Under the pieces are notes generated by a model. That model had not been told where the DNA came from, did not search any database, and worked only from the letters and a program-made list of their open reading frames with translations. Below are positions 2,862-44,000 of a stretch of 64,000 nt of DNA, one piece after another. The stretch covers positions 2,157 through 66,156 of the forward strand of contig JAUCBJ010000331.1 of NCBI GenBank assembly GCA_032718475.1. The letters run 5' to 3'. The translations under genes and the position numbers were made by a program. Numbering within the stretch: the first letter of the stretch is position 1; the number at the start of each line of letters is the position of its first letter. The DNA is from Nemertoderma westbladi. Its lineage: Eukaryota; Animalia; Xenacoelomorpha.

Positions 2862-3159
2862 ACCTACATTACATATATATTGCCATTTTATATTTTAAAA
2901 CCTAAACATTTTTTTTCATATTCACCGATTTTTTTATGATAAAGTAGTTAATTGTTTGTTTTCTAAATATAAGATTTAGTTATTTTATATTAAACCTGTA
3001 AATATTTATGGTAAATCTTATTCATTAAGTTTGATATTTGGAATATTTATTTACATTTGTTGACATTTTATTGCGAATTTAATTTGTCAGGTTAATTTTT
3101 TGTTCTATCTTATGTGTATTTAACGATGGAAGACCTTCCATGATTAAACCGTGTCCAGG

Positions 3160-7619: not shown

Positions 7620-7815
7620 CGAACCAGGAGGCGACCCGAAGGCACGACCTTTCGATAACTGCTATAACCGAAGGTATGGCGGTGGGCTACTCCTATAACA
7701 AGATTTCTTCCAGTAATTCAACTGATCCTCATTTTCTTGACCCCAGTGGATGAAAGACTTAGTATACCGGCGGGGCTCGTACTTTCAACCAATAGATTGT
7801 AAGCCCCGCGGCGCT
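7620..7815 (-). mobile_element. Possible SINE/LINE-tail remnant
   Basis: ggcgacccgaagg... and ctcattttcttgaccccagtggatgaaagac resemble motifs I recall from invertebrate SINEs; recognition from memory only. Confidence 0.3.
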
Positions 7816-7881
7816 CATGGCTCTATCTATATTAAAATGTGTTATTAATTTCGCATACTTATGAGAAATAAATTATTTGGG

Positions 7882-8156
7882 CCCATGTGAAGAAAACCAG
7901 ACTTTCTGCCGTTATATTTCACTTTGCAGTTACCCCCATGTGAAGAATACCAGGTTTTAACCAAAAACACAGGTTTAGAGAAGGGCTGAATCTAGCCAAA
8001 ACAATAAACGAATTAGTATATGTACAGGTTATAAGACAGAAATAAGCGCTATAAAACACTTAATAAAGACAAATAAAAAAAAATAAAAAATCTTTATAGA
8101 TAAAATTCCAATAAAAGGTTGACCGAAAAGTGAAATCCTGGTATTCTTCACATGGG
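7882..8156. mobile_element. MITE-like element with CCCATGTGAAGAA termini
   Basis: cccatgtgaagaa(a/t)accag occurs at 7882 and ~7935, with an inverted copy ctggtattcttcacatggg ending at ~8156. Confidence 0.55.
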
Positions 8157-9020
8157 CGATTCTTTGATCACATGAAACAATAAAATCCGAATAGTACTAT
8201 TAATTATGAGAATGTAATAGCATTGAATAAAAATAACAAATTACGTCACAGCAGTGTCTTTTTATCCACTATTTTAATTTTGGCGGGCTAATTAAAAGAT
8301 CTGCTGATAAGAATCAGCTGTCAGCTGATCTCTCAGACACATGTCATCCCCATCTCAGTAAATCGGTGCCGTACAGCAGTACAGTGTCATCAGGTCAGAC
8401 CACAGACAGTAAACAGGTAACAGGGTAAAGCTGTAAAGCTGTGTAAAGCCTCTCGCTCTCACCTGTCAGCCTGTACGCCAGTACCGGTACTACAGCGCCA
8501 GACAGCAGTTCTGGCAGTAGGCTCTGTCACTGTCACACTTTGACACTGCCCGATCCCTACCAGCCTACACCTGTACACCTGTACACTGCACACTCAGACA
8601 CTGCCGCACTGTCTGACTGTATTGTCCAGTCGCCTTGCAGCCTTGTAGTACTGTAGTAGTCGTTCTACGTTGCAGGTCTCAGGTCTGCAGGTTGCCCAGT
8701 TGCCCTAGCACCTTGCTGCCTTGCTTGAACTATCTGCCTGTCGGTGTCGGTCTGTGTCAAGCTGTCAAGGTGTACGAAATAACACACAGTTATTTAGTAC
8801 ACCTTGATCTGTGTAGAGAAATTAACATTAAAAATACGAAATAAGCCAACTGCACTGCAACTGCTGTATCCTACAGTCCTACCCCTCAGTATAATTACCG
8901 GTACCAGTAGCGGAGTTCTGATATATCACTGTGTATCAGGAGGCCCCTGCATGTCAGCGTTCGCTCTGGCACTGGCGTTTCACCAGCATCAGGATATCCC
9001 ATTGTAAACACAACGAAAAA

Positions 9021-9079
9021 ATGTCGGCAAAAAACATTTACTATTCGGATAAATATACGGATGAGGAATATGAATATCG
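9021..9079 (+). CDS. CKS1: Cyclin-dependent kinases regulatory subunit (Cks1/Cks2/suc1), coding exon 1
   Basis: ATG..MSAKNIYYSDKYTDEEYEY(R) followed by the donor GTAAGT at 9080 (phase 2). Matches the Cks family N-terminus IYYSDKY.DE.YEYR. Confidence 0.96.
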
Positions 9080-9384
9080 GTAAGTTGAATATCGGTAAAC
9101 TAAAGGCATAAAATTAACCTATTTCCTACTGCTGTACTTGTCAGGGATGTTAAGAGTTCTTTTTTATTCTCTTTTTCTTTATTATTTTAGGCCTATAATA
9201 AAAGAAAATTTTTATTTATATGATAATAATTTTAGCGAATTTATTTATTGATCATGTTTTTTTATTTATTACTGAATTAGCCTAAACTAATTACTGTCCT
9301 AACTGCCTAATGCTTTAAATTGGAGTTTTTAAATTAAAATTAAATTAATATTATAAATTTACATTAAAGCTACAGTGCTGCAGT

Positions 9385-9600
9385 GCTGCAATTGCAACAA
9401 ATCTATTTCTCGTATTTTACTTCTAAATATATTTAAACTGCGCGCATTTACAACATCTGGGGGAAAACTATTCCAAATCGGCACTGCACGTTTGGTTCGC
9501 AAAACAATACTTGATAATTTGTAGTCTACAATGATTAAAAAATAATTTAAGACCTTTGCCAAGGTATTATTACGGGAGGCACTAAAAAATTAATTGTTCG
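9385..9600 (-). pseudogene. CR1/L2-type LINE 3'-end remnant in Cks intron 1
   Basis: RAVPIWNSFPPDVVNARSLNIFRSKI matches the typical CR1-group C-terminal motif R...WN.LP..VV.A.SL..FK..L. Confidence 0.65.
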
Positions 9601-10018
9601 TTTAAAATAGAACTACTATAAAACTCCAAAAGTAGTGCATAATGAGAAAATGTAAGAGTAAGTGCTACTATTTTATTTCATTGCATGACCAAGGGTTGGA
9701 AGGGAGTGAAGGACACATAAACCTCTACAGTATTATTATATGTGATGTGACCGCAATAACATAATCAATGATGTTTAGCTAACACACTTGATATTAACAT
9801 AAATACATAAAAAAAATAATCTTATATGTTCTTTTATGGTCTTTTATATAAAATGAACAACCATTTAAAAATTATTATTTTAACATCCCTGCTACTGGCA
9901 GACTAATTAAATTGAGTGGAATTTCTGACATTATCCATCCACACTGCAGATAGGTACCGGTACAGAGCTATGGTTTAGGGTTCTGTCTGCTTTTACTAAA
10001 TAAATTATTTATTTACAG

Positions 10019-10109
10019 CCACGTTATTCTTCCTAAAGATTTAGCTAAATTGGTTCCAAAATCACATTTAATGACAGAAACGGAATGGCGAAACATCGGT
10101 GTGCAACAG
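10019..10109 (+). CDS. CKS1: Cks1/suc1 coding exon 2
   Basis: Acceptor ttatttatttacag at 10018. Encodes (R)[30 protein letters not shown], with donor CAG|GTGAGT at 10110 (phase 0). Phase is compatible with exon 1. Confidence 0.97.
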
Positions 10110-13100
10110 GTGAGTGAACGGAATGGCGAAACATCGGTGTGCAACAGGTGAGTGAATGGAATGGCGAAACTTCGGTGTGCAGCAGGTGAGTGAACGGAAT
10201 GGCGAAACATCGGTGTGCAACAGGTGAGTGAACGGAATGGCGAAACATCGGTGTGCAACAGGTGAGTGAACGGAATGGCGAAACATCGGTGTGCAGCAGG
10301 TGAGTGAACGGAATGGCGAAACATCGGTGTGCAACAGGTGAGTGAACGGAATGGCGAAACATTGGTGTGCAACAGGTGAGTGAATGGAATGGCGAAACAT
10401 CGGTGTGCAGCAGGTGAGTGAACGGAATGGCGAAACATCGGTGTGCAGCAGGTGAGTGAACGGAATGGCGAAACATCGGTGTGCAGCAGGTGAGTGAACG
10501 GAGTGGCGAAACATCGGTGTGCAACAGGTGAGTGAACGGAATGGCGAAACATTGGTGTGCAACAGGTGAGTGAACGGAATGGCGAAACATCGGTGTGCAA
10601 CAGGTGAGTGAACGGAATGGCGAAACATTGGTGTGCAACAGGTGAGTGAACGGAATGGCGAAACATCGGTGTGCAGCAGGTGAGTGAACGGAATGGCGAA
10701 ACATTGGTGTGCAACAGGTGAGTGAATGGAATGGCGAAACATCGGTGTGCAGCAGGTGAGTGAACGGAATGGCGAAACATCGGTGTGCAGCAGGTGAGTG
10801 AACGGAATGGCGAAACATCGGTGTGCAGCAGGTGAGTGAACGGAATGGCGAAACATTGGTGTGCAACAGGTGAGTGAACGGAATGGCGAAACATCGGTGT
10901 GCAACAGGTGAGTGAACGGAGTGGCGAAACATCGGTGTGCAGCAGGTGAGTGAACGGAATGGCGAAACATCGGTGTGCAGCAGGTGAGTGAACGGAATGG
11001 CGAAACATTGGTGTGCAACAGGTGAGTGAACGGAATGGCGAAACATCGGTGTGCAGCAGGTGAGTGAACGGAATGGCGAAACATCGGTGTGCAACAGGTG
11101 AGTGAACGGAATGGCGAAACATCGGTGTGCAACAGGTGAGTGAACGGAATGGCGAAACATCGGTGTGCAACAGGTGAGTGAACGGAATGGCGAAACATTG
11201 GTGTGCAACAGGTGAGTGAACGGAGTGGCGAAACATCGGTGTGCAGCAGGTGAGTGAACGGAATGGCGAAACATCGGTGTGCAGCAGGTGAGTGAACGGA
11301 ATGGCGAAACATTGGTGTGCAACAGGTGAGTGAACGGAATGGCGAAACATCGGTGTGCAGCAGGTGAGTGAACGGAATGGCGAAACATCGGTGTGCAACA
11401 GGTGAGTGAACGGAATGGCGAAACATCGGTGTGCAACAGGTGAGTGAACGGAATGGCGAAACATCGGTGTGCAACAGGTGAGTGAACGGAATGGCGAAAC
11501 ATCGGTGTGCAACAGGTGAGTGAACGGAATGGCGAAACATTGGTGTGCAACAGGTGAGTGAACGGAGTGGCGAAACATCGGTGTGCAGCAGGTGAGTGAA
11601 CGGAATGGCGAAACATCGGTGTGCAGCAGGTGAGTGAACGGAATGGCGAAACATTGGTGTGCAACAGGTGAGTGAACGGAATGGCGAAACATCGGTGTGC
11701 AGCAGGTGAGTGAACGGAATGGCGAAACATCGGTGTGCAACAGGTGAGTGAACGGAATGGCGAAACATCGGTGTGCAACAGGTGAGTGAACGGAATGGCG
11801 AAACATCGGTGTGCAACAGGTGAGTGAACGGAATGGCGAAACATTGGTGTGCAACAGGTGAGTGAACGGAGTGGCGAAACATCGGTGTGCAGCAGGTGAG
11901 TGAACGGAATGGCGAAACATCGGTGTGCAACAGGTGAGTGAACGGAATGGCGAAACATCGGTGTGCAGCAGGTGAGTGAACGGAGTGGAGAAACATTGGT
12001 GTGCAACAGGTGAGTGAACGGAATGGCGAAACATCGGTGTGCAACAGGTGAGTGAACGGAATGGCGAAACATCGGTGTGCAACAGGTGAGTGAACGGAAT
12101 GGCGAAACATTGGTGTGCAACAGGTGAGTGAACGGAGTGGCGAAACATCGGTGTGCAGCAGGTGAGTGAACGGAATGGCGAAACATCGGTGTGCAGCAGG
12201 TGAGTGAACGGAATGGCGAAACATTGGTGTGCAACAGGTGAGTGAACGGAATGGCGAAACATCGGTGTGCAACAGGTGAGTGAACGGAATGGCGAAACAT
12301 CGGTGTGCAACAGGTGAGTGAACGGAATGGCGAAACATCGGTGTGCAACAGGTGAGTGAACGGAATGGCGAAACATCGGTGTGCAACAGGTGAGTGAACG
12401 GAATGGCGAAACATCGGTGTGCAACAGGTGAGTGAACGGAATGGCGAAACATCGGTGTGCAACAGGTGAGTGAACGGAATGGCGAAACATTGGTGTGCAA
12501 CAGGTGAGTGAACGGAATGGCGAAACATCGGTGTGCAGCAGGTGAGTGAACGGAGTGGCGAAACATCGGTGTGCAGCAGGTGAGTGAACGGAATGGCGAA
12601 ACATCGGTGTGCAGCAGGTGAGTGAACGGAATGGCGAAACATTGGTGTGCAACAGGTGAGTGAACGGAATGGCGAAACATCGGTGTGCAGCAGGTGAGTG
12701 AACGGAATGGCGAAACATCGGTGTGCAGCAGGTGAGTGAACGGAATGGCGAAACATTGGTGTGCAACAGGTGAGTGAACGGAATGGCGAAACATCGGTGT
12801 GCAGCAGGTGAGTGAACGGAATGGCGAAACATCGGTGTGCAACAGGTGAGTGAACGGAATGGCGAAACATCGGTGTGCAGCAGGTGAGTGAACGGAATGG
12901 CGAAACATCGGTGTGCAACAGGTGAGTGAACGGAATGGCGAAACATCGGTGTGCAGCAGGTGAGTGAACGGAATGGCGAAACATCGGTGTGCAGCAGGTG
13001 AGTGAACGGAATGGCGAAACATCGGTGTGCAACAGGTGAGTGAACGGAATGGCGAAACATCGGTGTGCAGCAGGTGAGTGAACGGAATGGCGAAACATCG

Positions 13101-16100
13101 GTGTGCAGCAGGTGAGTGAACGGAATGGCGAAACATCGGTGTGCAGCAGGTGAGTGAACGGAATGGCGAAACATCGGTGTGCAGCAGGTGAGTGAACGGA
13201 ATGGCGAAACATCGGTGTGCAGCAGGTGAGTGAACGGAATGGCGAAACATTGGTGTGCAACAGGTGAGTGAACGGAATGGCGAAACATCGGTGTGCAGCA
13301 GGTGAGTGAACGGAATGGCGAAACATCGGTGTGCAGCAGGTGAGTGAACGGAGTGGCGAAACATCGGTGTGCAACAGGTGAGTGAACGGAATGGCGAAAC
13401 ATCGGTGTGCAACAGGTGAGTGAACGGAATGGCGAAACATTGGTGTGCAACAGGTGAGTGAACGGAATGGCGAAACATCGGTGTGCAGCAGGTGAGTGAA
13501 CGGAATGGCGAAACATCGGTGTGCAGCAGGTGAGTGAACGGAATGGCGAAACATTGGTGTGCAACAGGTGAGTGAACGGAATGGCGAAACATCGGTGTGC
13601 AGCAGGTGAGTGAACGGAATGGCGAAACATCGGTGTGCAACAGGTGAGTGAACGGAATGGCGAAACATCGGTGTGCAGCAGGTGAGTGAACGGAATGGCG
13701 AAACATCGGTGTGCAACAGGTGAGTGAACGGAATGGCGAAACATCGGTGTGCAACAGGTGAGTGAACGGAATGGCGAAACATCGGTGTGCAACAGGTGAG
13801 TGAACGGAATGGCGAAACATTGGTGTGCAACAGGTGAGTGAACGGAGTGGCGAAACATCGGTGTGCAGCAGGTGAGTGAACGGAATGGCGAAACATCGGT
13901 GTGCAACAGGTGAGTGAACGGAATGGCGAAACATCGGTGTGCAGCAGGTGAGTGAACGGAGTGGCGAAACATCGGTGTGCAGCAGGTGAGTGAACGGAAT
14001 GGCGAAACATCGGTGTGCAGCAGGTGAGTGAACGGAATGGCGAAACATTGGTGTGCAACAGGTGAGTGAACGGAATGGCGAAACATCGGTGTGCAGCAGG
14101 TGAGTGAACGGAATGGCGAAACATCGGTGTGCAGCAGGTGAGTGAACGGAATGGCGAAACATCGGTGTGCAACAGGTGAGTGAACGGAATGGCGAAACAT
14201 CGGTGTGCAGCAGGTGAGTGAACGGAGTGGCGAAACATCGGTGTGCAACAGGTGAGTGAACGGAGTGGCGAAACATCGGTGTGCAGCAGGTGAGTGAACG
14301 GAATGGCGAAACATCGGTGTGCAGCAGGTGAGTGAACGGAATGGCGAAACATTGGTGTGCAACAGGTGAGTGAACGGAATGGCGAAACATCGGTGTGCAG
14401 CAGGTGAGTGAACGGAATGGCGAAACATCGGTGTGCAGCAGGTGAGTGAACGGAATGGCGAAACATCGGTGTGCAACAGGTGAGTGAACGGAATGGCGAA
14501 ACATTGGTGTGCAACAGGTGAGTGAACGGAATGGCGAAACATCGGTGTGCAGCAGGTGAGTGAACGGAATGGCGAAACATTGGTGTGCAACAGGTGAGTG
14601 AACGGAATGGCGAAACATCGGTGTGCAACAGGTGAGTGAACGGAGTGGCGAAACATCGGTGTGCAGCAGGTGAGTGAACGGAATGGCGAAACATCGGTGT
14701 GCAGCAGGTGAGTGAACGGAATGGCGAAACATCGGTGTGCAACAGGTGAGTGAACGGAATGGCGAAACATTGGTGTGCAACAGGTGAGTGAACGGAATGG
14801 CGAAACATCGGTGTGCAGCAGGTGAGTGAACGGAATGGCGAAACATTGGTGTGCAACAGGTGAGTGAACGGAATGGCGAAACATCGGTGTGCAGCAGGTG
14901 AGTGAACGGAATGGCGAAACATCGGTGTGCAACAGGTGAGTGAACGGAGTGGCGAAACATCGGTGTGCAACAGGTGAGTGAACGGAATGGCGAAACATCG
15001 GTGTGCAGCAGGTGAGTGAACGGAATGGCGAAACATTGGTGTGCAACAGGTGAGTGAACGGAATGGCGAAACATCGGTGTGCAGCAGGTGTGTTAACGGA
15101 GTGGCGAAACATCGGTGTGCAACAGGTGAGTGAACGGAATGGCGAAACATCGGTGTGCAACAGGTGAGTGAACGGAGTGGCGAAACATCGGTGTGCAGCA
15201 GGTGAGTGAACGGAGTGGCGAAACATCGGTGTGCAGCAGGTGAGTGAACGGAATGGCGAAACATCGGTGTGCAGCAGGTGAGTGAACGGAATGGCGAAAC
15301 ATCGGTGTGCAGCAGGTGAGTGAACGGAATGGCGAAACATCGGTGTGCAACAGGTGAGTGAACGGAATGGCGAAACATCGGTGTGCAGCAGGTGAGTGAA
15401 CGGAATGGCGAAACATCGGTGTGCAACAGGTGAGTGAACGGAATGGCGAAACATCGGTGTGCAACAGGTGAGTGAACGGAATGGCGAAACATCGGTGTGC
15501 AACAGGTGAGTGAACGGAATGGCGAAACATCGGTGTGCAACAGGTGAGTGAACGGAATGGCGAAACATCGGTGTGCAACAGGTGAGTGAACGGAATGGCG
15601 AAACATCGGTGTGCAGCAGGTGAGTGAACGGAATGGCGAAACATTGGTGTGCAACAGGTGAGTGAACGGAATGGCGAAACATCGGTGTGCAGCAGGTGAG
15701 TGAACGGAATGGCGAAACATCGGTGTGCAACAGGTGAGTGAACGGAATGGCGAAACATCGGTGTGCAGCAGGTGAGTGAACGGAATGGCGAAACATCGGT
15801 GTGCAACAGGTGAGTGAACGGAATGGCGAAACATCGGTGTGCAACAGGTGAGTGAATGGAATGGCGAAACATCGGTGTGCAACAGGTGAGTGAACGGAAT
15901 GGCGAAACATCGGTGTGCAACAGGTGAGTGAACGGAGTGGCGAAACATCGGTGTGCAACAGGTGAGTGAACGGAGTGGCGAAACATCGGTGTGCAACAGG
16001 TGAGTGAACGGAGTGGCGAAACATTGGTGTGCAACAGGTGAGTGAACGGAGTGGCGAAACATCGGTGTGCAACAGGTGAGTGAACGGAGTGGCGAAACAT

Positions 16101-17573
16101 CGGTGTGCAACAGGTGAGTGAACGGAGTGGCGAAACATCGGTGTGCAGCAGGTGAGTGAACGGAATGGCGAAACATCGGTGTGCAACAGGTGAGTGAACG
16201 GAATGGCGAAACATCGGTGTGCAGCAGGTGAGTGAACGGAATGGCGAAACATCGGTGTGCAACAGGTGAGTGAACGGAATGGCGAAACATCGGTGTGCAA
16301 CAGGTGAGTGAACGGAATGGCGAAACATCGGTGTGCAACAGGTGAGTGAACGGAGTGGCGAAACATTGGTGTGCAACAGGTGAGTGAACGGAGTGGCGAA
16401 ACATCGGTGTGCAACAGGTGAGTGAACGGAGTGGCGAAACATCGGTGTGCAACAGGTGAGTGAACGGAGTGGCGAAACATCGGTGTGCAGCAGGTGAGTG
16501 AACGGAATGGCGAAACATCGGTGTGCAACAGGTGAGTGAACGGAATGGCGAAACATCGGTGTGCAACAGGTGAGTGAACGGAGTGGCGAAACATTGGTGT
16601 GCAACAGGTGAGTGAACGGAGTGGCGAAACATCGGTGTGCAACAGGTGAGTGAACGGAGTGGCGAAACATCGGTGTGCAACAGGTGAGTGAACGGAGTGG
16701 CGAAACATCGGTGTGCAGCAGGTGAGTGAACGGAATGGCGAAACATCGGTGTGCAACAGGTGAGTGAACGGAATGGCGAAACATCGGTGTGCAACAGGTG
16801 AGTGAACGGAGTGGCGAAACATTGGTGTGCAACAGGTGAGTGAACGGAGTGGCGAAACATCGGTGTGCAACAGGTGAGTGAACGGAGTGGCGAAACATCG
16901 GTGTGCAACAGGTGAGTGAACGGAGTGGCGAAACATCGGTGTGCAGCAGGTGAGTGAACGGAATGGCGAAACTTCGGTGTGCAGCAGGTGAGTGAACGGA
17001 ATGGCGAAACATCGGTGTGCAACAGGTGAGTGAACGGAATGGCGAAACATCGGTGTGCAACAGGTGAGTGAACGGAATGGCGAAACATCGGTGTGCAACA
17101 GGTGAGTGAACGGAGTGGCGAAACATTGGTGTGCAACAGGTGAGTGAACGGAGTGGCGAAACATCGGTGTGCAACAGGTGAGTGAACGGAGTGGCGAAAC
17201 ATCGGTGTGCAGCAGGTGAGTGAACGGAATGGCGAAACATTGGTGTGCAACAGGTGAGTGAACGGAATGGCGAAACATCGGTGTGCAACAGGTGAGTGAA
17301 CGGAGTGGCGAAACATTGGTGTGCAACAGGTGAGTGAACGGAGTGGCGAAACATCGGTGTGCAACAGGTGAGTGAACGGAGTGGCGAAACATCGGTGTGC
17401 AACAGGTGAGTGAACGGAGTGGCGAAACATCGGTGTGCAGCAGGTGAGTGAACGGAATGGCGAAACATTGGTGTGCAACAGGTGAGTGAACGGAATGGCG
17501 AAACATCGGTGTGCAGCAGGTGAGTGAACGGAGTGGCGAAACATTGGTGTGCAACAGGTGAGTGAACGGAATG
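10079..17573 (+). repeat. 38-bp tandem array (aacggaRtggcgaaacatYggtgtgcaRcaggtgagtg) x 197, derived from the exon 2/intron 2 junction
   Basis: First donor GT is at 10110 and the last at 17558. The difference, 7448 = 196 x 38, shows no net indel. The first unit is the real exon end. Confidence 0.98.
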
Positions 17574-17575
17574 AG

Positions 17576-20500
17576 TGATCCTACTTACCTACTTATGATC
17601 CTACTCAGCTACTTATGATCCTACTTACCTACTTATGATCCTACTTACCTACTTATGATCCTACTTACCTACTTATGATCCTACTTACCTACTTATGATC
17701 CTACTTACCTACTTATGATCCTACTTACCTACTTATGATCCTACTTACCTACTTATGATCCTACTTACCTACTTATGATCCTACTTACCTACTTATGATC
17801 CTACTCAGCTACTTATGATCCTACTTACCTACTTATGATCCTACTTACCTACTTATGATCCTACTCAGCTACTTATGATCCTACTTACCTACTTATGATC
17901 CTACTCAGCTACTTATGATCCTACTTACCTACTTATGATCCTACTCATCTACTTATGATCCTACTTACCTACTTATGATCCTACTTACCTACTTATGATC
18001 CTACTCTGCTACTTATGATCCTACTTACCTACTTATGATCCTACTTACCTACTTATGATCCTACTTACCTACTTATGATCCTACTTACCTACTTATGATC
18101 CTAATTACCTACTTATGATCCTACTTACCTACTTATGATCCTACTTACCTACTTATGATCCTACTCAGCTACTTATGATCCTACTTACCTACTTATGATC
18201 CTACTTACCTACTTATGATCCTACTCAGCTACTTATGATCCTACTTACCTACTTATGATCCTACTTACCTACTTATGATCCTACTTACCTACTTATGATC
18301 CTACTTACCTACTTATGATCCTACTTACCTACTTATGATCCTACTTACCTACTTATGATCCTACTCTGCTACTTATGATCCTACTTACCTACTTATGATC
18401 CTACTTACCTACTTATGATCCTACTTACCTACTTATGATCCTACTTACATACTTATGATCCTACTTACCTACTTATGATCCTACTCAGCTACTTATGATC
18501 CTACTTACCTACTTATGATCCTACCCAGCTACTTATGATCCTACTCAGCTACTTATGATCCTACATTCCTACTTATGATCCTACTCAGCTACTTATGATC
18601 CTACTTACCTACTTATGATCCTACTCAGCTACTTATGATCCTACTTACCTACTTATGATCCTACGTACCTACTTATGATCCTACTCAGCTACTTATGATC
18701 CTACTTACCTACTTATGATCCTACTCAGCTACTTATGATCCTACTTACCTACTTATGATCCTACTTACCTACTTATGATCCTACTCATCTACTTATGATC
18801 CTACTTACCTACTTATGATCCTACTTATGATCCTACTTACCTACTTATGATCCTACTTACCTACTTATGATCCTACTTACCTACTTATGATCCTACTTAC
18901 CTACTTATGATCCTACTTACCTACTTATGATCCTACTTACCTACTTATGATCCTACTTACCTACTTATGATCCTACTTACCTACTTATGATCCTACTTAC
19001 CTACTTATGATCATACTTACCTACTTATGATCCTACTTACCTACTTATGATCCTACTTACCTACTTATGATCCTACTTACCTACTTATGATCCTACTTAC
19101 CTACTTATGATCCTACTTACCTACTTATGATCCTACTTACCTACTTATGATCCTACTCATCTACTTATGATCCTAATTACCTACTTATGATCCTACTCAT
19201 CTACATATGATCCTACTTACCTACATATGATCCTACTTACCTACTTATGATCCTACTTACCTACTTATGATCCTACTTACCTACTTATGATCCTACTTAC
19301 CTACTTATGATCCTACTTACCTACTTATGATCCTACTTACCTACTTATGATCCTACTTACCTACTTATGATCCTACTTACCTACTTATGATCCTACTTAC
19401 CTACTTATGATCCTACTTACCTACTTATGATCCTACTTACCTACTTATGATCCTACTTACCTACTTATGATCCTACTTAGCTACTTATGATCCTACTTAC
19501 CTACTTATGATCCTACTTACCTACTTATGATCCTACTTACCTACTTATGATCCTACTTACCTACTTATGATCCTACTTACCTACTTATGATCCTACTTAC
19601 CTACTTATGATCCTACTTACCTACTTATGATCCTACTTACCTACTTATGATCCTACTTACCTACTTATAATCCTACTTACCTACTTATGATCCTACTTAC
19701 CTACTTATGATCCTACTTACCTACTTATGATCCCACTTACCTACTTATGATCCTACTTACCTACTTATGATCCTACTTACCTACTTATGATCCTACTCAG
19801 CTACTTATGATCCTACTTACCTACTTATGATCCTACTTACCTACTTATGATCCTACACAGCTACTTATGATCCTACTTACCTACTTATGATCCTACTTAC
19901 CTACTTATGATCCTACTTACCTACTTATGATCCTACTTACCTACTTATGATCCTACTTACCTACTTATGATCCTACTTACCTACTTATGATCCTACTTAC
20001 CTACTTATGATCCTACTTACCTACTTATGATCCTACTTACCTACTTATGATCCTACTTACCTACTTATGATCCTACTTACCTACTTATGATCCTACTCAC
20101 CTACTTATGATCCTACTTACCTACTTATGATCCTACTTACCTACTTATGATCCTACTTACCTACTTATGATCCTACTTACCTACTTATGATCCTACTTAC
20201 CTACTTATGATCCTACTTACCTACTTATGATCCTACTCACCTACTTATGATCCTACTTACCTACTTATGATCCTACTTACCTACTTATGATCCCACTTAC
20301 CTACTTATGATCCTACTTACCTACTTATGATCCTACTTACCTACTTATGATCCTACTTACCTACTTATGATCCTACTCAGCTACTTATGATCCTACTCAG
20401 CTACTTATGATCCTACTTACCTACTTATGATCCTACTTACCTACTTATGATCCTACTTACCTACTTATGATCCTACTTACCTACTTATGATCCTACTTAC

Positions 20501-23500
20501 CTACTTATGATCCTACTTACCTACTTATGATCCTACTTACCTACTTATGATCCTACTCAGCTACTTATGATCCTACTCAGCTACTTATGATCCTACTTAC
20601 CTACTTATGATCCTACTTACCTACTTATGATCCTACTTACCTACTTATGATCCTACTTACCTACTTATGATCCTACTTACCTACTTATGATCCTACTTAC
20701 CTACTTATGATCCTACTTACCTACTTATGATCCTACTCAGCTACTTATGATCCTACTTACCGACTTATGATCCTACTCAGCTACTTATGATCCTACTTAC
20801 CTACTTATGATCCTACTTACCTACTTATGATCCTACTTACCTACTTATGATCCTACTTACCTACTTATGATCCTACTTACCTACTTATGATCCTACTTAC
20901 CTACTTATGATCCTACTTACCTACTTATGATCCTACTTACCTACTTATGATCCTACTTACCTACTTATGATCCTACTTACCTACTTATGATCCTACTTAC
21001 CTACTTATGATCCTACTTACCTACTTATGATCCTACACAGCTACTTATGATCCTACTTACCTACTTATGATCCTACTTACCTACTTATGATCCTACTTAC
21101 CTACTTATGATCCTACTTACCTACTTATGATCCTACTTACCTACTTATGATCCTACTTACCTACTTATGATCCTACTTACCTACTTATGATCCTACTTAC
21201 CTACTTATGATCCTACTTACCTACTTATGATCCTACTTACCTACTTATGATCCTACTTACCTACTTATGATCCTACTCAGCTACTTATGATCCTACTTAC
21301 CTACTTATGATCCTACTTACCTACTTATGATCCTACTTACCTACTTATGATCCTACTTACCTACTTATGATCCTACTTACCTACTTATGATCCTACTTAC
21401 CTACTTATGATCCTACTTACCTACTTATGATCCTACTTACCTACTTATGATCCTACTCAGCTACTTATGATCCTACTTACCGACTTATGATCCTACTCAG
21501 CTACTTATGATCCTACTTACCTACTTATGATCCTACTTACCTACTTATGATCCTACTTACCTACTTATGATCCTACTTACCTACTTATGATCCTACTTAC
21601 ATACTTATGATCCTACTTACCTACTTATGATCCTACTTACCTACTTATGATCCTACTCAGCTACTTATGATCCTACTTACCTACTTATGATCCTACTCAG
21701 CTACTTATGATCCTACTTACCTACTTATGATCCTACATACCTACTTATGATCCTACTCAGCTACTTATGATCCTACTTACCTACTTATGATCCTACTTAC
21801 CTACTTATGATCCTACTCAGCTACTTATGATCCTACTTACCTACTTATGATCCTACTTACCTACTTATGATCCTACTTACCTACTTATGATCCTACTTAC
21901 ATACTTATGATCCTACTTACCTACTTATGATCCTACTTACCTACTTATGATCCTACTTACCTACTTATGATCCTACTTACCTACTTATGATCCTACTCAT
22001 CTACTTATGATCCTACTTACCTACTTATGATCCTACTTAGGATCCTACTTACCTACTTATGATCCTACTTACCTACTTATGATCCTACTTACCTACTTAT
22101 GATCCTACTTACCTACTTATGATCCTACTTACCTACTTATGATCCTACTTACCTACTTATGATCCTACTTACCTACTTATGATCCTACTTACCTACTTAT
22201 GATCCTACTTACCTACTTATGATCCTACTTACCTACTTATGATCCTACTTACCTACTTATGATCCTACTTACCTACTTATGATCCTACTTACCTACTTAT
22301 GATCCTACTTACCTACTTATGATCCTACTCAGCTACTTATGATCCTACTTACCTACTTATGATCCTACTCAGCTACTTATGATCCTACTTACCTACTTAT
22401 GATCCTACATACCTACTTATGATCCTACTCAGCTACTTATGATCCTACTTACCTACTTATGATCCTACTTACCTACTTATGATCCTACTCAGCTACTTAT
22501 GATCCTACTTACCTACTTATGATCCTACTTACCTACTTATGATCCTACTTACCTACTTATGATCCTACTTACATACTTATGATCCTACTTACCTACTTAT
22601 GATCCTACTTACCTACTTATGATCCTACTTACCTACTTATGATCCTACTTACCTACTTATGATCCTACTCATCTACTTATGATCCTACTTACCTACTTAT
22701 GATCCTATTTAGGATCCTACTTACCTACTTATGATCCTACTTACCTACTTATGATCCTACTTACCTACTTATGATCCTACTTACCTACTTATGATCCTAC
22801 TTACCTACTTATGATCCTACTTACCTACTTATGATCCTACTTACCTACTTATGATCCTACTTACCTACTTATGATCCTACTTACCTACTTATGATCCTAC
22901 TTACCTACTTATGATCCTACTTACCTACTTATGATCCTACTTACCTACTTATGATCCTACTCATCTACTTATGATCCTACTTACCTACTTATGATCCTAC
23001 TCATCTACTTATGATCCTACTTACCTACTTATGATCCTACTCAGCTACTTATGATCCTACTTACCTACTTATGATCCTACTTACCTACTTATGATCCTAC
23101 TTACCTACTTATGATCCTACTTACCTACTTATGATCCTACTTACCTACTTATGATCCTACTTACCTACTTATGATCCTACTTACCTACTTATGATCCTAC
23201 TCAGCTACTTATGATCCTACTTACCCACTTATGATCCTACTTACCTACTTATGATCCTACTTACCTACTTATGATCCTACTTACCTACTTATGATCCTAC
23301 TTACCTACTTATGATCCTACTCAGCTACTTATGATCCTACTTACCTACTTATGATTCTACTTACCTACTTATGATCCTACTCAGCTACTTATGATCCTAC
23401 TTACCTACTTATGATCCTACTTACCTACTTATGATCCTACTTATCTACTTATGATCCTACTTACCTACTTATGATCCTACTTACCTACTTATGATCCTAC

Positions 23501-26500
23501 TTACCTACTTATGATCCTACTTACCTACTTATGATCCTACTTACCTACTTATGATCCTACTTACCTACTTATGATCCTACTTACCTACTTATGATCCTAC
23601 TCAGCTACTTATGATCCTACTTACCTACTTATGATCCTACTTACCTACTTATGATCCTACTTACCTACTTATGATCCTACTTACCTACTTATGATCCTAC
23701 TTACCTACTTATGATCCTACTCATCTACTTATGATCCTACTTACCTACTTATGATCCTACTCATCTACTTATGATCCTACTTACCTACTTATGATCCTAC
23801 TTACCTACTTATAATCCTACTTACCTACTTATGATCCTACTCATCTACTTATGATCCTACTTACCTACTTATGATCCTACTCATCTACTTATGATCCTAC
23901 TTACCTACTTATGATCCTACTTACCTACTTATGATCCTACTCAGCTACTTATGATCCTACTTACCTACTTATGATCCTACTTACCTACTTATGATCCTAC
24001 TTACCTACTTATGATCCTACTTACCTACTTATGATCCTACTTACCTACTTATGATCCTACTTACCTACTTATGATCCTACTCATCTACTTATGATCCTAC
24101 TTACCTACTTATGATCCTACTCATCTACTTATGATCCTACTTACCTACTTACCTACGGTCACCCTTCACAAAACTCACCTGTCTAAGGAAGAGTTCCGCG
24201 ACGCTCTGTGTCTGCGCTACGGCTGGCAACCGAAGTCGCTCCCTTCTCGTTGTGTCTGTGGGGAACGATTTTCCCCTTCACACGTCCTGTCGTGCCCCAC
24301 CGGGGGTTATCCCTCGATAAGGCACAACGAGATACGCGATTTCGTTGCCGACGCGCTAACTGAAGTAGCCCACAACGTCGCAGTAGAGCCAGCACTCCAG
24401 CCTCTTAACAGGTGAGGAGTTCACCCACAGATCCACCTCCACAGAAGATCAGGCGAGGTTGGACGTCTCTGTCAGCGGGTTCTGGGGTGGCCGGTTCGAG
24501 AAGACTTACTTCGACGTCTCGGTCTACAACCCTCTAGCGGCCACCAACGCAGCCATGACCACCGAGGGCGCTTATTCCCACCACGAGGCGCGGAAACGCC
24601 TGAAGTACGAGGAGCGCATCCGAGAGGTCGAACTGTCGTCGTTTGTGCCTCTGATACTTTCAGCCTTTGGTGGTACCGCGCCAGCGATGCAACAGTTCGT
24701 TAAGCGTTTATCGCTTAAACTCTCGGATCGTCGCGACCTCAGCTACTCTGAGTGTATCTGCTGGACGCGGAGGAAGATAAGCTTCGCGCTTCTCCGCTCC
24801 AGTTTGATGTGTCTCCGTGGAGCGAGATCCGCCACCAAACGCCCTGTTTATCATCAGGTGTCCGCAGACTCGATTCGCCTGACTAACGCTGATACCAACA
24901 CCGGCTAGACTGACTGTCAGTGGTAGTCATAGGCCTCTAAACAGGCCCTTCTTTCTTTATTTATTATTTTTTTTTATTATCGGTATCGGTGTAGGAATTA
25001 TTCATTTTGTTCTATTAATAAAGTGCCTGTAAAAGAGTTATGCTGATATTGTGCAAATTATATAATAAACTAGTAACTTAAAAAAAAAAAAAAACTTACC
25101 TACTTATGATCCTACTCAGCTACTTATGATCCTACTTACCTACTTATGATCCTACTTACCTACTTATGATCCTACTTACCTACTTATGATCCTACTTACC
25201 TACTTATGATCCTACTTACCTACTTATGATCCTAATTACCTACTTATGATCCTACTTACCTACTTATGATCCTACTTACCTACTTATGATCCTACTCACC
25301 TACTTATGATCCTACTTACCTACTTATGATCCTACTTACCTACTTATGATCCTACTCAGCTACTTATGATCCTACTTACCTACTTATGATCCTACTTACC
25401 TACTTATGATCCTACTTACCTACTTATGATCCTACTTACCTACTTATGATCCTACTTACCTACTTATGATCCTACTTACCTACTTATGATCCTACTTACC
25501 TACTTATGATCCTACTTACCTACTTATGATCCTACTTACCTACTTATGATCCTACTTACCTACTTATGATCCTACTTACCTACTTATGATCCTACTTACC
25601 TACTTATGATCCTACTCATCTACTTATGATCCTACTTACCTACTTATGATCCTACTCATCTACTTATGATCCTACTTACCTACTTATGATCCTACTCAGC
25701 TACTTATGATCCTACTTACCTACTTATGATCCTACTTACCTACTTATGATATCCTACTTACCTACTTATGATCCTACTTACCTACTTATGATCCTACTTA
25801 CCTACTTATGATCCTACTTACCTACTTATGATCCTACTTACCTACTTATGATCCTACTTACCTACTTATGATCCTACTCACCTACTTATGATCCTACTTA
25901 CCTACTTATGATCCTACTTACCTACTTATGATCCTACTTACCTACTTATGATCCTACTCACCTACTTATGATCCTACTTACCTACTTATGATCCTACTCG
26001 GCTACTTATGATCCTACTTACCTACTTATGATCCTACTCATCTACTTATGATCCTACTTACCTACTTATGATCCTACTTACCTACTTATAATCCTACTTA
26101 CCTACTTATGATCCTACTCATCTACTTATGATCCTACTTACCTACTTATGATCCTACTCATCTACTTATGATCCTACTTACCTACTTATGATCCTACTTA
26201 CCTACTTATGATCCTACTCAGCTACTTATGATCCTACTTACCTACTTATGATCCTACTTACCTACTTATGATCCTACTCAGCTACTTATGATCCTACTTA
26301 CCTACTTATGATCCTACTTACCTACTTATGATCCTACTTACCTACTTATGATCCTACTTACCTACTTATGATCCTACTTACCTACTTATGATCCTACTCA
26401 GCTACTTATGATCCTACTTACCTACTTATGATCCTACATTCCTACTTACCTACTTATGATCCTACTTGCCTACTTATGATCCTACTCAGCTACTTATGAT

Positions 26501-29500
26501 CCTACTTACCTACTTATGATCCTACTTACCTACTTATGATCCTACTTACCTACTTATGATCCTACTTACCTACTTATGATCCTACTTACCTACTTATGAT
26601 CCTACTTACCTACTTATGATCCTACTTACCTACTTATGATCCTACTTACCTACTTATGATCCTACTTACCTACTTATGATTCTACTTACCTACTTATGAT
26701 CCTACTTATGATCCTACTTACCTACTTATGATCCTACTTACCTACTTATGATCCTACTTACCTACTTATGATCCTACTTACCTACTTATGATCCTACTTA
26801 CCTACTTATGATCCTACTTACCTACTTATGATCCTACTTACCTACTTATGATCCTACTTACCTACTTATAATTCTACTTACCTACTTATGATCCTACTTA
26901 TGATCCTACTTACCTACTTATGATCCTACTTACCTACTTATGATCCTACTTACCTACTTATGACCCTACTTACCTACTTATGATCCTAATTACCTACTTA
27001 TGATCCTACTCATCTACTTATGATCCTACTTACCTACTTATGATCCTACTTACCTACTTATGATCCTACTTACCTACTTATGATCCTACTTACCTACTTA
27101 TGATCCTACTTACCTACTTATGATCCTACTTATGATCCTACTTACCTACTTATGATCCTACTTACCTACTTATGATCCTACTTACCTACTTATGATCCTA
27201 CTTACCTACTTATGATCCTACTTACCTACTTATGATCCTACTTTCCTACTTATGATCCTACTTACCTACTTATGATCCTACTCAGCTACTTATGATCCTA
27301 CTTACCTACTTATGATCCTACTTACCTACTTATGATCCTACTACAGCTACTTATGATCCTACTTACCTACTTATGATCCTACTTACCTACTTATGATCCT
27401 ACTTACCTACTTATGATCCTACTTACCTACTTATGATCCTACTTACCTACTTATGATCCTACTTACCTACTTATGATCCTACTTACCTACTTATGATCCT
27501 ACTTACCTACTTATGATCCTACTTACCTACTTATGATCCTACTTACCTACTTATGATCCTACTCAGCTACTTATGATCCTACTTACCTACTTATGATCCT
27601 ACTCACCTACTTATGATCCTACTTACCTACTTATGATCCTACTTACCTACTTATGATCCTACTTACCTACTTATGATCCTACTTACCTACTTATGATCCT
27701 ACTCAGCTACTTATGATCCTACTTACCTACTTATGATCCTACTTACCTACTTATGATCCTACTTACCTACTTATGATCCTACTTACCTACTTATGATCCT
27801 ACTTACCTACTTATGATCCTACTTACCTACTTATGATCCTACTTACCTACTTATGATCCTACTCAGCTACTTATGATCCTACTTACCTACTTATGATCCT
27901 ACTTACCTACTTATGATCCTACTTACCTACTTATGATCCTACTTACCTACTTATGATCCTACTTACCTACTTATGATCCTACGTACCTACTTATGATCAT
28001 AATCAGCTACTTATGATCCTACTTACCTACTTATGATCCTACTTACCTACTTATGATCCTACTCAGCTACTTATGATCCTACTTACCTACTTATGATCCT
28101 ACTTACCTACTTACCTACTTATGATCCTACTTACCTACTTATGATCCTACTTATGATCCTACTTACCTACTTATGATCCTACTTACCTACTTATGATCCT
28201 ACTTACCTACTTATGATCCTACTTATGATCCTACTTACCTACTTATGATCCTACTCAGCTACTTATGATCCTACTTACCTACTTATGATCCTACTTACCT
28301 ACTTATGATCCTACTTACCTACTTATGATCCTACTTACCTACTTATGATCCTACTCACCTACTTATGATCCTACTTACCTACTTATGATCCTACTCATCT
28401 ACTTATGATCCTACTTACCTACTTATGATCCTACTTACCTACTTATGATCCTACTTACCTACTTATGATCCTACTTACCTACTTATGATCCTACTTACCT
28501 ACTTATGATCCTACTTACCTACTTATGATCCTACTTACCTACTTATGATCCTACTTACCTACTTATGATCCTACTTACCTACTTATGATCCTACTCACCT
28601 ACTTATGATCCTACTTACCTACTTATGATCCTACTCAGCTACTTATGATCCTACTTACCTACTTATGATCCTACTTACCTACTTATGATCCTACTTACCT
28701 ACTTATGATCCTACTTACCTACTTATGATCCTACTTACCTACTTATGATCCTACTTACCTACTTATGATCCTACTTACCTACTTATGATCCTACTTACCT
28801 ACTTATGATCCTACTTACCTACTTATGATCCTACTTACCTACTTATGATCCTACTTACCTACTTATGATCCTACTTACCTACTTATGATCCTACTCACCT
28901 ACTTATGATCCTACTTACCTACTTATGATCCTACTCCTACTTATGATCCTACTTACCTACTTATGATCCTACTCATCTACTTATGATCCTACTTACCTAC
29001 TTATGATCCTACTTACCTACTTATGATCCTACTTACCTACTTATGATCCTACTCACCTACTTATGATCCTACTTACCTACTTATGATCCTACTCATCTAC
29101 TTATGATCCTACTTACCTACTTATGATCCTACTTACCTACTTATGATCCTACTCACCTACTTATGATCCTACTTACCTACTTATGATCCTACTTACCTAC
29201 TTATGATCCTACTCAGCTACTTATGATCCTACTTACCTACTTATGATCCTACTTACCTACTTATGATCCTACTTACCTACTTATGATCCTACTTACCTAC
29301 TTATGATCCTACTTACCTACTTATGATCCTACTCAGCTACTTATGATCCTACTTACCTACTTATGATCCTACATTCCTACTTACCTACTTATGATCCTAC
29401 TTACCTACTTATGATCCTACTCAGCTACTTATGATCCTACTTACCTACTTATGATCCTACTTACCTACTTATGATCCTACTTACCTACTTATGATCCTAC

Positions 29501-32500
29501 TTACCTACTTATGATCCTACTTACCTACTTATGATCCTACTTACCTACTTATGATCCTACTTACCTACTTATGATCCTACTTACCTACTTATGATCCTAC
29601 TTACCTACTTATGATTCTACTTACCTACTTATGATCCTACTTATGATCCTACTTACCTACTTATGATCCTACTTACCTACTTATGATCCTACTTACCTAC
29701 TTATGACCCTACTTACCTACTTATGATCCTACTTACCTACTTATGATCCTACTTACCTACTTATGATCCTACTTACCTACTTATGATCCTACTTACCTAC
29801 TTATAATTCTACTTACCTACTTATGATCCTACTTATGATCCTACTTACCTACTTATGATCCTACTTACCTACTTATGATCCTACTTACCTACTTATGACC
29901 CTACTTACCTACTTATGATCCTACTTACCTACTTATGATCCTACTCATCTACTTATGATCCTACTTACCTACTTATGATCCTACTTACCTACTTATGATC
30001 CTACTTACCTACTTATGATCCTACTTACCTCCTTATGATCCTACTTACCTACTTATGATCCTACTTATGATCCTACTTACCTACTTATGATCCTACTTAC
30101 CTACTTATGATCCTACTTACCTACTTATGATCCTACTTACCTACTTATGATCCTACTTACCTACTTATGATCCTACTTTCCTACTTATGATCCTACTTAC
30201 CTACTTATGATCCTACTCAGCTACTTATGATCCTACTTACCTACTTATGATCCTACTTACCTACTTATGATCCTACACAGCTACTTATGATCCTACTTAC
30301 CTACTTATGATCCTACTTACCTACTTATGATCCTACTTACCTACTTATGATCCTACTTACCTACTTATGATCCTACTTACCTACTTATGATCCTACTTAC
30401 CTACTTATGATCCTACTTACCTACTTATGATCCTACTTACCTACTTATGATCCTACTTACCTACTTATGATCCTACTTACCTACTTATGATCCTACTCAG
30501 CTACTTATGATCCTACTTACCTACTTATGATCCTACTCAGCTACTTATGATCCTACTTACCTACTTATGATCCTACTTACCTACTTATGATCCTACTTAC
30601 CTACTTATGATCCTACTTACCTACTTATGATCCTACTCAGCTACTTATGATCCTACTTACCTACTTATGATCCTACTTACCTACTTATGATCCTACTTAC
30701 CTACTTATGATCCTACTTACCTACTTATGATCCTACTTACCTACTTATGATCCTACTTACCTACTTATGATCCTACTTACCTACTTATGATCCTACTCAG
30801 CTACTTATGATCCTACTTACCTACTTATGATCCTACTTACCTACTTATGATCCTACTTACCTACTTATGATCCTACTTACCTACTTATGATCCTACTTAC
30901 CTACTTATGATCCTACGTACCTACTTATGATCATAATCAGCTACTTATGATCCTACTTACCTACTTATGATCCTACTTACCTACTTATGATCCTACTCAG
31001 CTACTTATGATCCTACTTACCTACTTATGATCCTACTTACCTACTTACCTACTTATGATCCTACTTACCTACTTATGATCCTACTTATGATCCTACTTAC
31101 CTACTTATGATCCTACTTACCTACTTATGATCCTACTTACCTACTTATGATCCTACTTATGATCCTACTTACCTACTTATGATCCTACTCAGCTACTTAT
31201 GATCCTACTTACCTACTTATGATCCTACTTACCTACTTATGATCCTACTTACCTACTTATGATCCTACTTACCTACTTATGATCCTACTCATCTACTTAT
31301 GATCCTACTTACCTACTTATGATCCTACTCATCTACTTATGATCCTACTTACCTACTTATGATCCTACTTACCTACTTATAATCCTACTTACCTACTTAT
31401 GATCCTACTCATCTACTTATGATCCTACTTACCTACTTATGATCCTACTCATCTACTTATGATCCTACTTACCTACTTATGATCCTACTTACCTACTTAT
31501 GATCCTACTCAGCTACTTATGATCCTACTTACCTACTTATGATCCTACTTACCTACTTATGATCCTACTTACCTACTTATGATCCTACTTACCTACTTAT
31601 GATCCTACTTACCTACTTATGATCCTACTTACCTACTTATGATCCTACTTACCTACTTATGATCCTACTTATGATCCTACTTACCTACTTATGATCCTAC
31701 TTACCTACTTATGATCCTACTTACCTACTTATGATCCTACTTACCTACTTATGATCCTACTTACCTACTTATGATCCTACTTACCTACTTATGATCCTAC
31801 TTACCTACTTATGATCCTACTCATCTACTTATGATCCTACTTACCTACTTATGATCCTACTCATCTACTTATGATCCTACTTACCTACTTATGATCCTAC
31901 TCAGCTACTTATGATCCTACTTACCTACTTATGATCCTACTTACCTACTTATGATCCTACTTACCTACTTATGATCCTACTTACCTACTTATGATCTTAC
32001 TTACCTACTTATGATCCTACTTACCTACTTATGATCCTACTTACCTACTTATGATCCTACTTACCTACTTATGATCCTACTCAGCTACTTATGATCCTAC
32101 TTACCTACTTATGATCCTACTTACCTACTTATGATCCTACTTACCTACTTATGATCCTACTTACCTACTTATGATCCTACTTACCTACTTATGATCCTAC
32201 TCAGCTACTTATGATCCTACTTACCTACTTATGATCCTACTTACCTACTTATGATCCTACTTACCTACTTATGATCCTACTTACCTACTTATGATCCTAC
32301 TTACCTACTTATGATCCTACTTACCTACTTATGATCCTACTTACCTACTTATGATCCTACTCAGCTACTTATGATCCTACTTACCTACTTATGATCCTAC
32401 TTACCTACTTATGATCCTACTTACCTACTTATGATCCTACTTACCTACTTATGATCCTACTTACCTACTTATGATCCTACTTACCTACTTATGATCCTAC

Positions 32501-32704
32501 TTACCTACTTATGATCCTACTTACCTACTTATGATCCTACTTATCTACTTATGATCCTACTTACCTACTTATGATCCTACTTACCTACTTATGATCCTAC
32601 TTACCTACTTATAATCCTACTTACCTACTTATGATCCTACTTACCTACTTATAATCCTACTTACCTACTTATGATCCTACTTACCTACTTATGATCCTAC
32701 TTAC
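17576..32704. repeat. 20-bp satellite (tgatcctacttacctactta) x ~710, interrupted by a LINE at 24152-25094
   Basis: Directly visible. Variants include ctcagct, ctcatct, ctcacct and 12-bp short units; larger duplicated blocks are present. Confidence 0.98.
24152..25094 (+). mobile_element. 5'-truncated CRE-clade-like non-LTR retrotransposon (CCHC + restriction-like endonuclease), poly(A) tail, 12-bp TSD
   Basis: Encodes CVCGERFSPSHVLSC, RHNEIRD, VEP, RLDV..GFW..YFDVSV, K..KY and FVPL..SAFGG, with a frameshift near 24407 and a stop at 24908. AATAAA and an A15 tail follow. cttacctactta flanks both sides (24140-24151 and 25095-25106). Confidence 0.88.
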
Positions 32705-32887
32705 TTGGTTAGGAAACACCGTCAATGTAACCTGCTCCTTCCCCTTAATGGTTTAATTTCAATAAATTTATATTTTTTCAAATAATTGCAATTCCGAAAT
32801 CTAGAAATCGTTATGACGTCATTATAATTGATAGCTAGATTTCTCGAAGGGCCGCCGTTTAGTAATTTAGTTTTTTTTTTATTCCAG

Positions 32888-33010
32888 AGCCAAGGCTGGA
32901 TCCATTACATGATGCATGAACCGGAACCCCATATCCTGTTGTTCCGCAGAGCAGCTCCGGGTCAAACAGCTGCTCAATCAAAGCAATCAGTCGTGCAGAA
33001 AGTCCATTAA
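32888..33010 (+). CDS. CKS1: Cks1/suc1 coding exon 3
   Basis: [21 protein letters not shown]... contains the diagnostic [12 protein letters not shown] hinge motif, with TAA at 33008-33010. The spliced product is 90 aa. Confidence 0.97.
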
Positions 33011-41300: not shown

Positions 41301-41346
41301 TAACTGCTCTGGTCTGTAACTGCTTTGGTCTGTAACTGCTCTGGTC
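35338..41346. repeat. 16-bp satellite (gtctgtaactgctctg) x ~370 with variant units and duplicated blocks
   Basis: Directly visible. Confidence 0.97.
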
Positions 41347-41425
41347 GGGTGGTCCAAGCTGAGTACAATACCTACGAGGAACTGTTTTACGACATCGCGT
41401 ATCTAGCCATCGACGAGGCGTTACA

Positions 41426-43981: not shown

Positions 43982-44000
43982 TCTTATAAATCGCCGCTAC

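Follow-up and report, generated by a model that had tools for sequence, protein, structure and literature searches.

Nearly 200 copies of the exon 2 splice donor in a boundary-spanning minisatellite of a Cks gene from Nemertoderma westbladi

Minisatellites that span an exon–intron boundary, and so reiterate a splice donor along the intron, have been known since before 2006. In intron 7 of human F7 the first unit of a 37-bp minisatellite lies across the exon 7/intron 7 boundary, which gives five to nine identical donors; only the most upstream of these is reported to be used physiologically, and 50 constructs described in the same paper showed that the pseudo-sites are functional and that donor choice follows a scan oriented 5' to 3' (Borensztajn et al., 2006; PMC1557585). 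According to the summary of related genes in that paper, the first three donors are used in 6-16 (IFI6; 25 pseudo-sites) and in intervening sequence 13 (IVS13) of CBS (15–20 repeats), and the authentic donor only in LAMIN B2 (LMNB2; 10–15 repeats of 100 bp) and PDGF (16–18 repeats of 81 bp) (PMC1557585). Here we describe an array in intron 2 of a Cks gene, located in a stretch of 64,000 nucleotides (nt) from Nemertoderma westbladi (contig JAUCBJ010000331.1 of assembly GCA_032718475.1, positions 2,157 to 66,156 of the forward strand); this whole stretch is called the window below, and all positions are counted from its first letter. The array is an unusually large case of an already described kind, with 197 copies as against 5–26 in the published human cases.

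By its predicted protein the gene belongs to the CKS (cyclin-dependent kinase regulatory subunit) family, and no Cks1 or Cks2 subtype is assigned to it. Joining of exons 1, 2 and 3 by script gave a Cks product of 90 amino acids (aa). Exon 2 matches the Pfam CKS profile (PF01111) over profile positions 16–45 (E 2e-11, 44.3 bits) and exon 3 over positions 46–67 (E 5.9e-10, 39.6 bits), both scores exceeding the gathering cut-off of 27; since the matched positions adjoin (45/46), the junction made from the first donor restores an unbroken CKS domain. The features of the gene and of the array are as follows.

Upstream of 9021, from about 8317 or 8533, + strand: Cks 5' untranslated region (UTR), with alternative UTR introns.
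9021..9079, + strand: Cks exon 1, coding part, from ATG to CG and then gtaagt (sequence, translation and RNA contigs).
10019..10109, + strand: Cks exon 2, 91 nt (Pfam CKS match, and contig cover of 10018–10109).
10079..17573, + strand: boundary-spanning ('mirage'-type) array of 197 full 38-nt units and a 9-nt partial unit.
15057..15094, + strand: unit 132, the sole unit with a degraded donor, reading GTGTGTT.
32888..33010, + strand: Cks exon 3, coding part, 40 aa and TAA (Pfam CKS match and RNA contigs).

Tandem Repeats Finder (TRF) reported a single array at 10079–17573 with a period of 38, 197.2 copies, 96% matches and 0% indels. Its unit joins the 31 nt that close Cks exon 2 (10079–10109) to GTGAGTG, the first 7 nt of intron 2, so that the array begins 31 nt before the end of the exon at 10109 and its first unit straddles the exon 2/intron 2 boundary. 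A script counted 196 occurrences of CAGGTGAGT, the first, authentic donor included; consecutive occurrences follow each other at exactly 38 nt in 194 of 195 cases and at 76 nt in the remaining case, which is that of unit 132. There are thus 196 intact CAG/GTGAGT donors, the authentic one and 195 decoys, and one degraded unit in 197. At the 3' end of the array the 9-nt partial unit is joined to AGTGATCC, and from this join we read the original intron as having probably begun GTGAGTGATCC....

On the minus strand, at 10013–17588, the complement of the array is open in three frames, with open reading frames (ORFs) of 2523, 2511 and 1674+831 aa. All the reverse frames are open because the complement of the unit lacks a stop codon, a property that can be estimated to be expected of about 16% of units of 38-nt length, and they are probably meaningless.

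Only the first donor keeps the frame of Cks. Translation by script of the product of each donor gave the intact 90-aa protein with its normal stop for donor 1, a 70-aa product with a stop in exon 3 for donor 2, and a 63-aa product with a stop within the repeat for donors 3–197 (195 of the 197); every one of the 195 intact decoys would therefore lead to a premature stop. An earlier reading of the same DNA (the original prediction) had already described the composition of the unit, the degraded GTGTGT at about 15088, which is that of unit 132, and the coding outcome of donor 1, donor 2 and donors 3 onward, and in all of these it agrees with our results; it had also given 197 near-identical donors at 38-nt spacing, of which the spacing and the single degraded donor stand and the number of intact donors falls to 196.

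Evidence on which donor is used came from public sequencing runs. Four contain the exon 3 region, namely X1 and X2 (DNA) and X3 and X4 (index labels 'DNA?' and '?'), and none is listed as RNA. X1 is a possible source of the window, and X2 comes from a different sample and study. The RNA evidence consists of assembled contigs (k = 31), from which rare forms are dropped; they were placed on positions 8200–10190 and then on the narrower interval 9900–10190. Over the wider interval X3 and X4 cover exons only, leaving intron 1 uncovered, and both join exon 1 to exon 2 (9078/9079 to 10018/10019, with GT..AG ends), in a 278-nt X3 contig (contig 23, depth 4885) and a 535-nt X4 contig (contig 24). The 5' contig ends of X3 also bear adaptor-like loose ends. 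From the spliced joints, the uncovered intron 1 and these adaptor-like ends, X3 and X4 were taken to be complementary DNA (cDNA).

The contigs of these two cDNA-like runs support use of the first donor: the spliced RNA that was seen leaves exon 2 at 10109. Within 9900–10190, X3 contains one contig that runs from exon 1 to 10105 (depth 4885) and two 60-nt contigs (depths 6000 and 1121.7); the latter start at 10076, so that three letters specific to the exon precede the 31 nt that are shared, reach 10109 and continue with 26 loose letters. The X4 contig of 535 nt divides into 127 nt from exon 1, a stretch of 92 nt attributed to exon 2 and a further 316 nt that follow the junction, and it extends the Cks 3' UTR to about 33203. 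In both runs the loose letters beyond 10109 match 32888–32917 exactly and nowhere else in the window, which bears out the acceptor at 32888 that the original prediction had named. As the contigs run unbranched through the 31 nt common to every unit, what they show is splicing of donor 1 to exon 3. None of the contigs in 9900–10190 (three from X3 and one from X4) could be placed on 10110–10190 at a likeness of 90% or above, a blank that is uninformative on decoy use because contigs drop rare forms. Minor junction forms within the 5' UTR are present in X3 at depths of 22–173 beside the main form at 4885. An essential cell-cycle gene tolerates 195 perfect full-consensus decoys, each with the identical 31-nt exonic context, and its mRNA contigs still show the first donor.

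The array itself is also present in DNA contigs. In X2, several contigs cross unit-to-unit junctions (among them record 13, 10105–10156, depth 157, and record 16, 10114–10160, depth 90), the single-copy flank having a depth of 26–34, and X1 too contains short contigs across such junctions at depths well above that of its single-copy flank. The summed depth in the bin 10076–10142 is 8738 in X2 and 24619 in X1, which is hundreds of times that of the flank, these sums not being copy numbers. The tandem units are therefore real in a second sample and are not an invention of the assembly, and the figure of 197 copies is the length of the array in the assembly. The original prediction had named an assembly artefact as one outcome that would undo it; the independent sample X2 contains the unit-to-unit junctions.

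The array resembles that of F7 in several respects. In both, the first unit lies across the exon–intron boundary, a series of identical pseudo-donors lies downstream of the authentic one and the most upstream donor is used, and the units are of similar length, 37 nt in F7 and 38 nt in Cks (PMC1557585). No distinguishing secondary structure was found at the F7 donors in that paper, nor did prediction reveal one at the Cks donors. The two differ in copy number (5–9 in F7, 197 in Cks), in the make-up of the unit (4 exonic and 33 intronic nt in F7, 31 exonic and 7 intronic nt in Cks) and in donor strength, the F7 donor being weak (UGG/gugggu) whereas that of Cks is a full consensus match (CAG/GTGAGT); moreover, scanning and pseudo-site function were shown by constructs in F7, while Cks is known from its sequence and from contigs (PMC1557585). 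The donor is likewise reiterated in the introns of 6-16, CBS, LAMIN B2 and PDGF, in roughly eight- to twenty-fold fewer copies than in Cks, going by the summary cited above (PMC1557585). The upstream-first choice shown for five to nine weak F7 sites can thus be argued to extend beyond mammals and to an array of almost 200 strong sites.

Also comparable are the 'mirage' minisatellites of amphioxus, reported from Adh3, TnC, the globins BflGb6/9 and PGBD5 (PMC3087553, PMC3902484). As described in these two papers, they span the exon–intron boundary, carry AG/GT signals, leave normal splicing undisturbed and undergo concerted evolution through unequal exchange, in all of which the Cks array is like them; they are much smaller, with two to six units (globins) of 10–160 bp as against 197 units of 38 nt (PMC3087553, PMC3902484). 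The array boundaries of mirages are reported in one of these papers to be excluded from homogenization (PMC3087553, PMC3902484). In Cks, on the other hand, the boundary (exon) copy seems to share polymorphism with the array. A further relative is intron gain by tandem duplication of AGGT, of which potato RdRp is reportedly a case (PMC4974935). In the Rogers model of this process, as in Cks, the spliceosome removes the extra copy and the protein is unchanged, but one duplication there creates a new intron inside an exon, whereas in Cks an existing intron has been enlarged by about 7.5 kb with 196 extra copies (Hellsten et al., 2011; PMC3265369). The gigantic introns of Drosophila Y-linked genes are, like Cks intron 2, almost wholly made of simple tandem repeats that are transcribed and spliced out; unlike it they reach megabase size, their satellites are unrelated to the exon, and the account in PMC6508621 speaks of a dedicated expression programme and not of reiterated donors.

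Constructs in which two identical strong donors compete for one acceptor pose the same choice as Cks, yet in these nearly all splicing goes to the intron-proximal site once the donors are at least 45 nt apart (Hodson et al., 2012; PMC3413131), whereas the Cks contigs show use of the first, intron-distal site. The premise of the original prediction, that competing identical donors usually favour the intron-proximal site, accordingly holds for two-site constructs (PMC3413131) and fails for natural boundary minisatellites as summarized in PMC1557585. Since the latter use the most upstream donor or the first three, no special adaptation of this organism is needed; the selection of the upstream donor that had been predicted is seen in the X3 and X4 contigs, which join 10109 to exon 3. 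The 'intron loop' model of RNA polymerase II (Pol II) and U1 is compatible with an upstream-first choice (10.1101/2020.10.19.344200), and the LL2R preprint reports that donor-rich tandem-repeat RNA gathers splicing factors. The Cks locus is a ready-made substrate for setting models of scanning against models of proximity.

Variation among the units bears on how the array evolves. Eight of the 38 positions are variable. Three variants are common, being found in 44, 38 and 77 of the 197 units, and each is a third-position transition that is synonymous in the frame of the exon; the chance that three random exonic transitions would all be synonymous is P about 0.034. The commonest is CAA/CAG (both Gln), at the site equivalent to 10106. 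The rare variants are these.

ACG to ATG: 4 units, non-synonymous.
ATC to TTC: 2 units, non-synonymous.
CGA to AGA: 1 unit, synonymous.
Two donor changes: 1 unit (unit 132), intronic.

With the three common variants set aside, there are two changes at donor positions (10 x 197) and seven elsewhere in the unit (25 x 197), which gives no sign of selection on the donors either way. Multi-unit strings of unit types recur in units 21–50 and 160–197; six of the eight possible three-site haplotypes are present, and all four combinations occur at sites 7/28 and at sites 7/19. These local patterns and recombinant units are as expected of unequal exchange with breakpoints inside units.

Contigs on the exon side end at 10105 in X2 and X3 and at 10108 in X1, and X3 contains a two-armed bubble that starts 30 nt before 10106, both forms of which are spliced to exon 3 (depths 6000 and 1122). 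The geometry of the contigs in X2 and X3 suggests that the exon copy is itself polymorphic at 10106, the site of the commonest array variant. These observations hint at continuing sequence exchange between the array and the exon copy, or at an origin of the array from exon alleles that were polymorphic. If confirmed, the synonymous-only common variants and the polymorphism shared by exon and array would mean that an intronic repeat can stay in exchange with its parent exon.

Beyond the 38-mer array, intron 2 (10110–32887; 22,778 nt) consists largely of a second array, so that about 95% of the intron is tandem repeat. The 38-mer accounts for 7,464 nt and a 20-mer, TGATCCTACTTACCTACTTA, for 14,189 nt in about 710 units; TRF gave 757.7 copies of the 20-mer for 17576–32704, a span that includes an insertion of 940 nt. 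If the original intron began with GTGAGTGATCC..., the 20-mer array would start at intron position +6. The remaining features of the intron are as follows.

17576..24155, + strand: first block of the 20-nt array (TRF, sequence).
24156..25095, + strand (sense): 940-nt retroelement-like insertion, 5'-truncated and ending in a poly(A) run, which splits the 20-mer array.
25096..32704, + strand: second block of the 20-nt array (TRF, sequence).
32705..32887, + strand: unique intron tail of 183 nt; it contains the acceptor CAG and a T-rich tract, and pyrimidines make up 0.80 of the 20 nt that precede the CAG.

The 940-nt insertion is flanked on either side by CTTACCTAC and brought AATAAA signals into the Cks intron at 25017 and 25064; its 173-aa ORF has no Pfam match. 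Within the 20-mer array ACTTACCT, which we take to be part of the 5' end of U1 small nuclear RNA (snRNA) and complementary to the consensus donor, occurs 562 times, and it is present in only 0.3% of shuffled units. Rfam at its gathering scores returned no match in the 64-kb window. As to other properties of the 20-mer array, its minus strand reads as consensus donors (TAG/GTAAGT), 11 of its units read ACTCACCT, the exact complement of AGGTGAGT in Cks, and its plus strand, the insertion excluded, contains only 3 GT and 75 AG dinucleotides.

We think it likely that the array is a boundary-spanning minisatellite of the mirage or F7-IVS7 type, that donor 1 is used by upstream-first commitment, and that the repeat is a neutral or slightly costly passenger. 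On this explanation a 38-nt piece, made up of the 31-nt end of exon 2 with the 7 nt that open intron 2, would have been amplified to 197 tandem copies in the intron, and donor 1 would be chosen, as seems likely, by commitment of the splicing machinery to the upstream site and not by a feature of the repeat. Donor 1 may owe its success to being the first transcribed and to a real acceptor 91 nt upstream of it, a choice that would fit both the oriented 5'-to-3' scanning seen in F7 minigenes and the Pol II–U1 intron loop model. The array itself would be young and homogenized, a passenger in a region rich in short-unit arrays, with the exon copy perhaps still exchanging sequence with it. Several points weigh against this explanation. 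Two-site constructs with identical strong donors favour the intron-proximal site, and upstream-first choice is the rule of natural minisatellites and F7 minigenes and not a settled general mechanism. The neutrality of the array is an assumption. Decoy donors may be used at a low level, as contigs assembled at k = 31 lose rare forms. The synonymous pattern concerns three sites only (P about 0.03), and the place of the variant at 10106 comes from contig geometry. Finally, the summed depths of X1 and X2 exceed 197 copies at flank depth, though such depths are not copy numbers, and there may be more than 197 copies in the array, or further ones of the unit at other places in the genome.

Regulated unproductive splicing, in which splicing from the decoys at an adjustable rate would yield frameshifted, unstable mRNAs and the array would set the level of Cks, is in our view unlikely. 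It would draw on the premature stops that follow from all 195 intact decoys and on the use of the second and third donors besides the first in human IFI6 and CBS (PMC1557585); however, the junction-carrying contigs of two runs use donor 1, the donor positions, common variants set aside, vary no less than the others and so give no sign of selection, and the arrays of F7, LMNB2 and PDGF are silent according to the same source (PMC1557585). The original prediction had allowed for control of expression coupled to nonsense-mediated decay (NMD), and no result came out in support of that part of it. Another explanation is stepwise, recursive removal, in which donor 1 would be spliced to the CAG of a unit, regenerating an identical donor, and the array would be shortened before the final join. 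A recursive splice (ratchet) site is two-faced, its acceptor AG running straight into a donor GTRAGT. The unit boundaries read CAG/GTGAGT, and any such step would restore an identical sequence, but the 20 nt before the CAG of the unit are 35% pyrimidine, short of a pyrimidine tract, the corresponding values for the two real acceptors of the gene being 55% and 80%, and we regard stepwise removal as quite improbable.

The 562 copies of ACTTACCT invite an explanation by masking or looping in cis, in which about 560 sequences like the 5' end of U1 in the 20-mer array would pair with the decoys and hide them, or fold donor 1 towards the acceptor. The rarity of the motif in shuffled units, the abutment of the 38-mer and 20-mer arrays in one intron and a predicted energy of -11.9 kcal/mol for the 9-bp duplex between ACTTACCT and the donor all speak for it. 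Against it, 7.4% of shuffled units pair equally well with the donor by energy, and 42% when whole units are compared; the motif was picked out post hoc and its likeness to U1 is a presumed one; donor 1 would be masked as well; and the F7 work found no auxiliary intronic element (PMC1557585). We consider such masking very unlikely, and place as little trust in its extension to a two-part device, in which some 560 copies of ACTTACCT would serve as pairing partners of the 195 decoys in cis and the nascent intron would mask the decoys or zip into a compact loop. Were that true, the first donor, already committed, would be the only one left to join the acceptor at a distance of 22.8 kb. That the array, or its size, was made by the assembler is least probable of all: the length of 197 copies does rest on the assembly, and a mis-assembled mirage in a draft genome is reported in the amphioxus globin paper, but the unit-to-unit junction contigs of X2 stand at several times the flank depth and their summed depth at hundreds of times.

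Masking by RNA structure was rejected, the predicted unpaired probability of donor 1 (0.66) lying within the range of donors 2–9 (0.44–0.68); this result also speaks against masking in cis by the 20-mer array.

Contigs of X3 reveal at least seven alternative 5'-UTR introns in 8316–8889 (+ strand), with donors at 8357, 8359, 8364, 8423, 8472 and 8572 and acceptors at 8789, 8819, 8867, 8877 and 8889, and adaptor-like loose ends of X3 at 8316 and 8532 suggest transcription from two start sites. In intron 1 an alternative form of 9164–9828 is present in the DNA contigs of X1 and X2, in which these 665 nt are replaced by 9 other letters at a depth of 30–35, like that of the flank; it is probably an insertion/deletion polymorphism.

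Tandem repeats make up roughly 45% of the window, intron 2 included. A 16-mer array of 371 copies occupies 35341–41346, starting about 2.1 kb beyond the point, at about 33203, where contig cover of the Cks mRNA ends. At 2564–2861 there is a perfect array of a 24-mer, with 12.4 copies; with these two further short-unit arrays in the window, tandem arrays are common in this region. Long open frames at 49336–51960 and 59925–60845 (+ strand; 874 and 306 aa) have no Pfam match. Two bodies of Pao/Bel-type long terminal repeat (LTR) retrotransposons are located at 41363–48116 and 53674–58201 (+ strand), with DUF1759 gag-like, Peptidase_A17, integrase zinc-binding and DUF5641 domains; the second body is broken into several frames. 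Upstream of the Cks gene, positions 6784–6808 are a run of 25 G.

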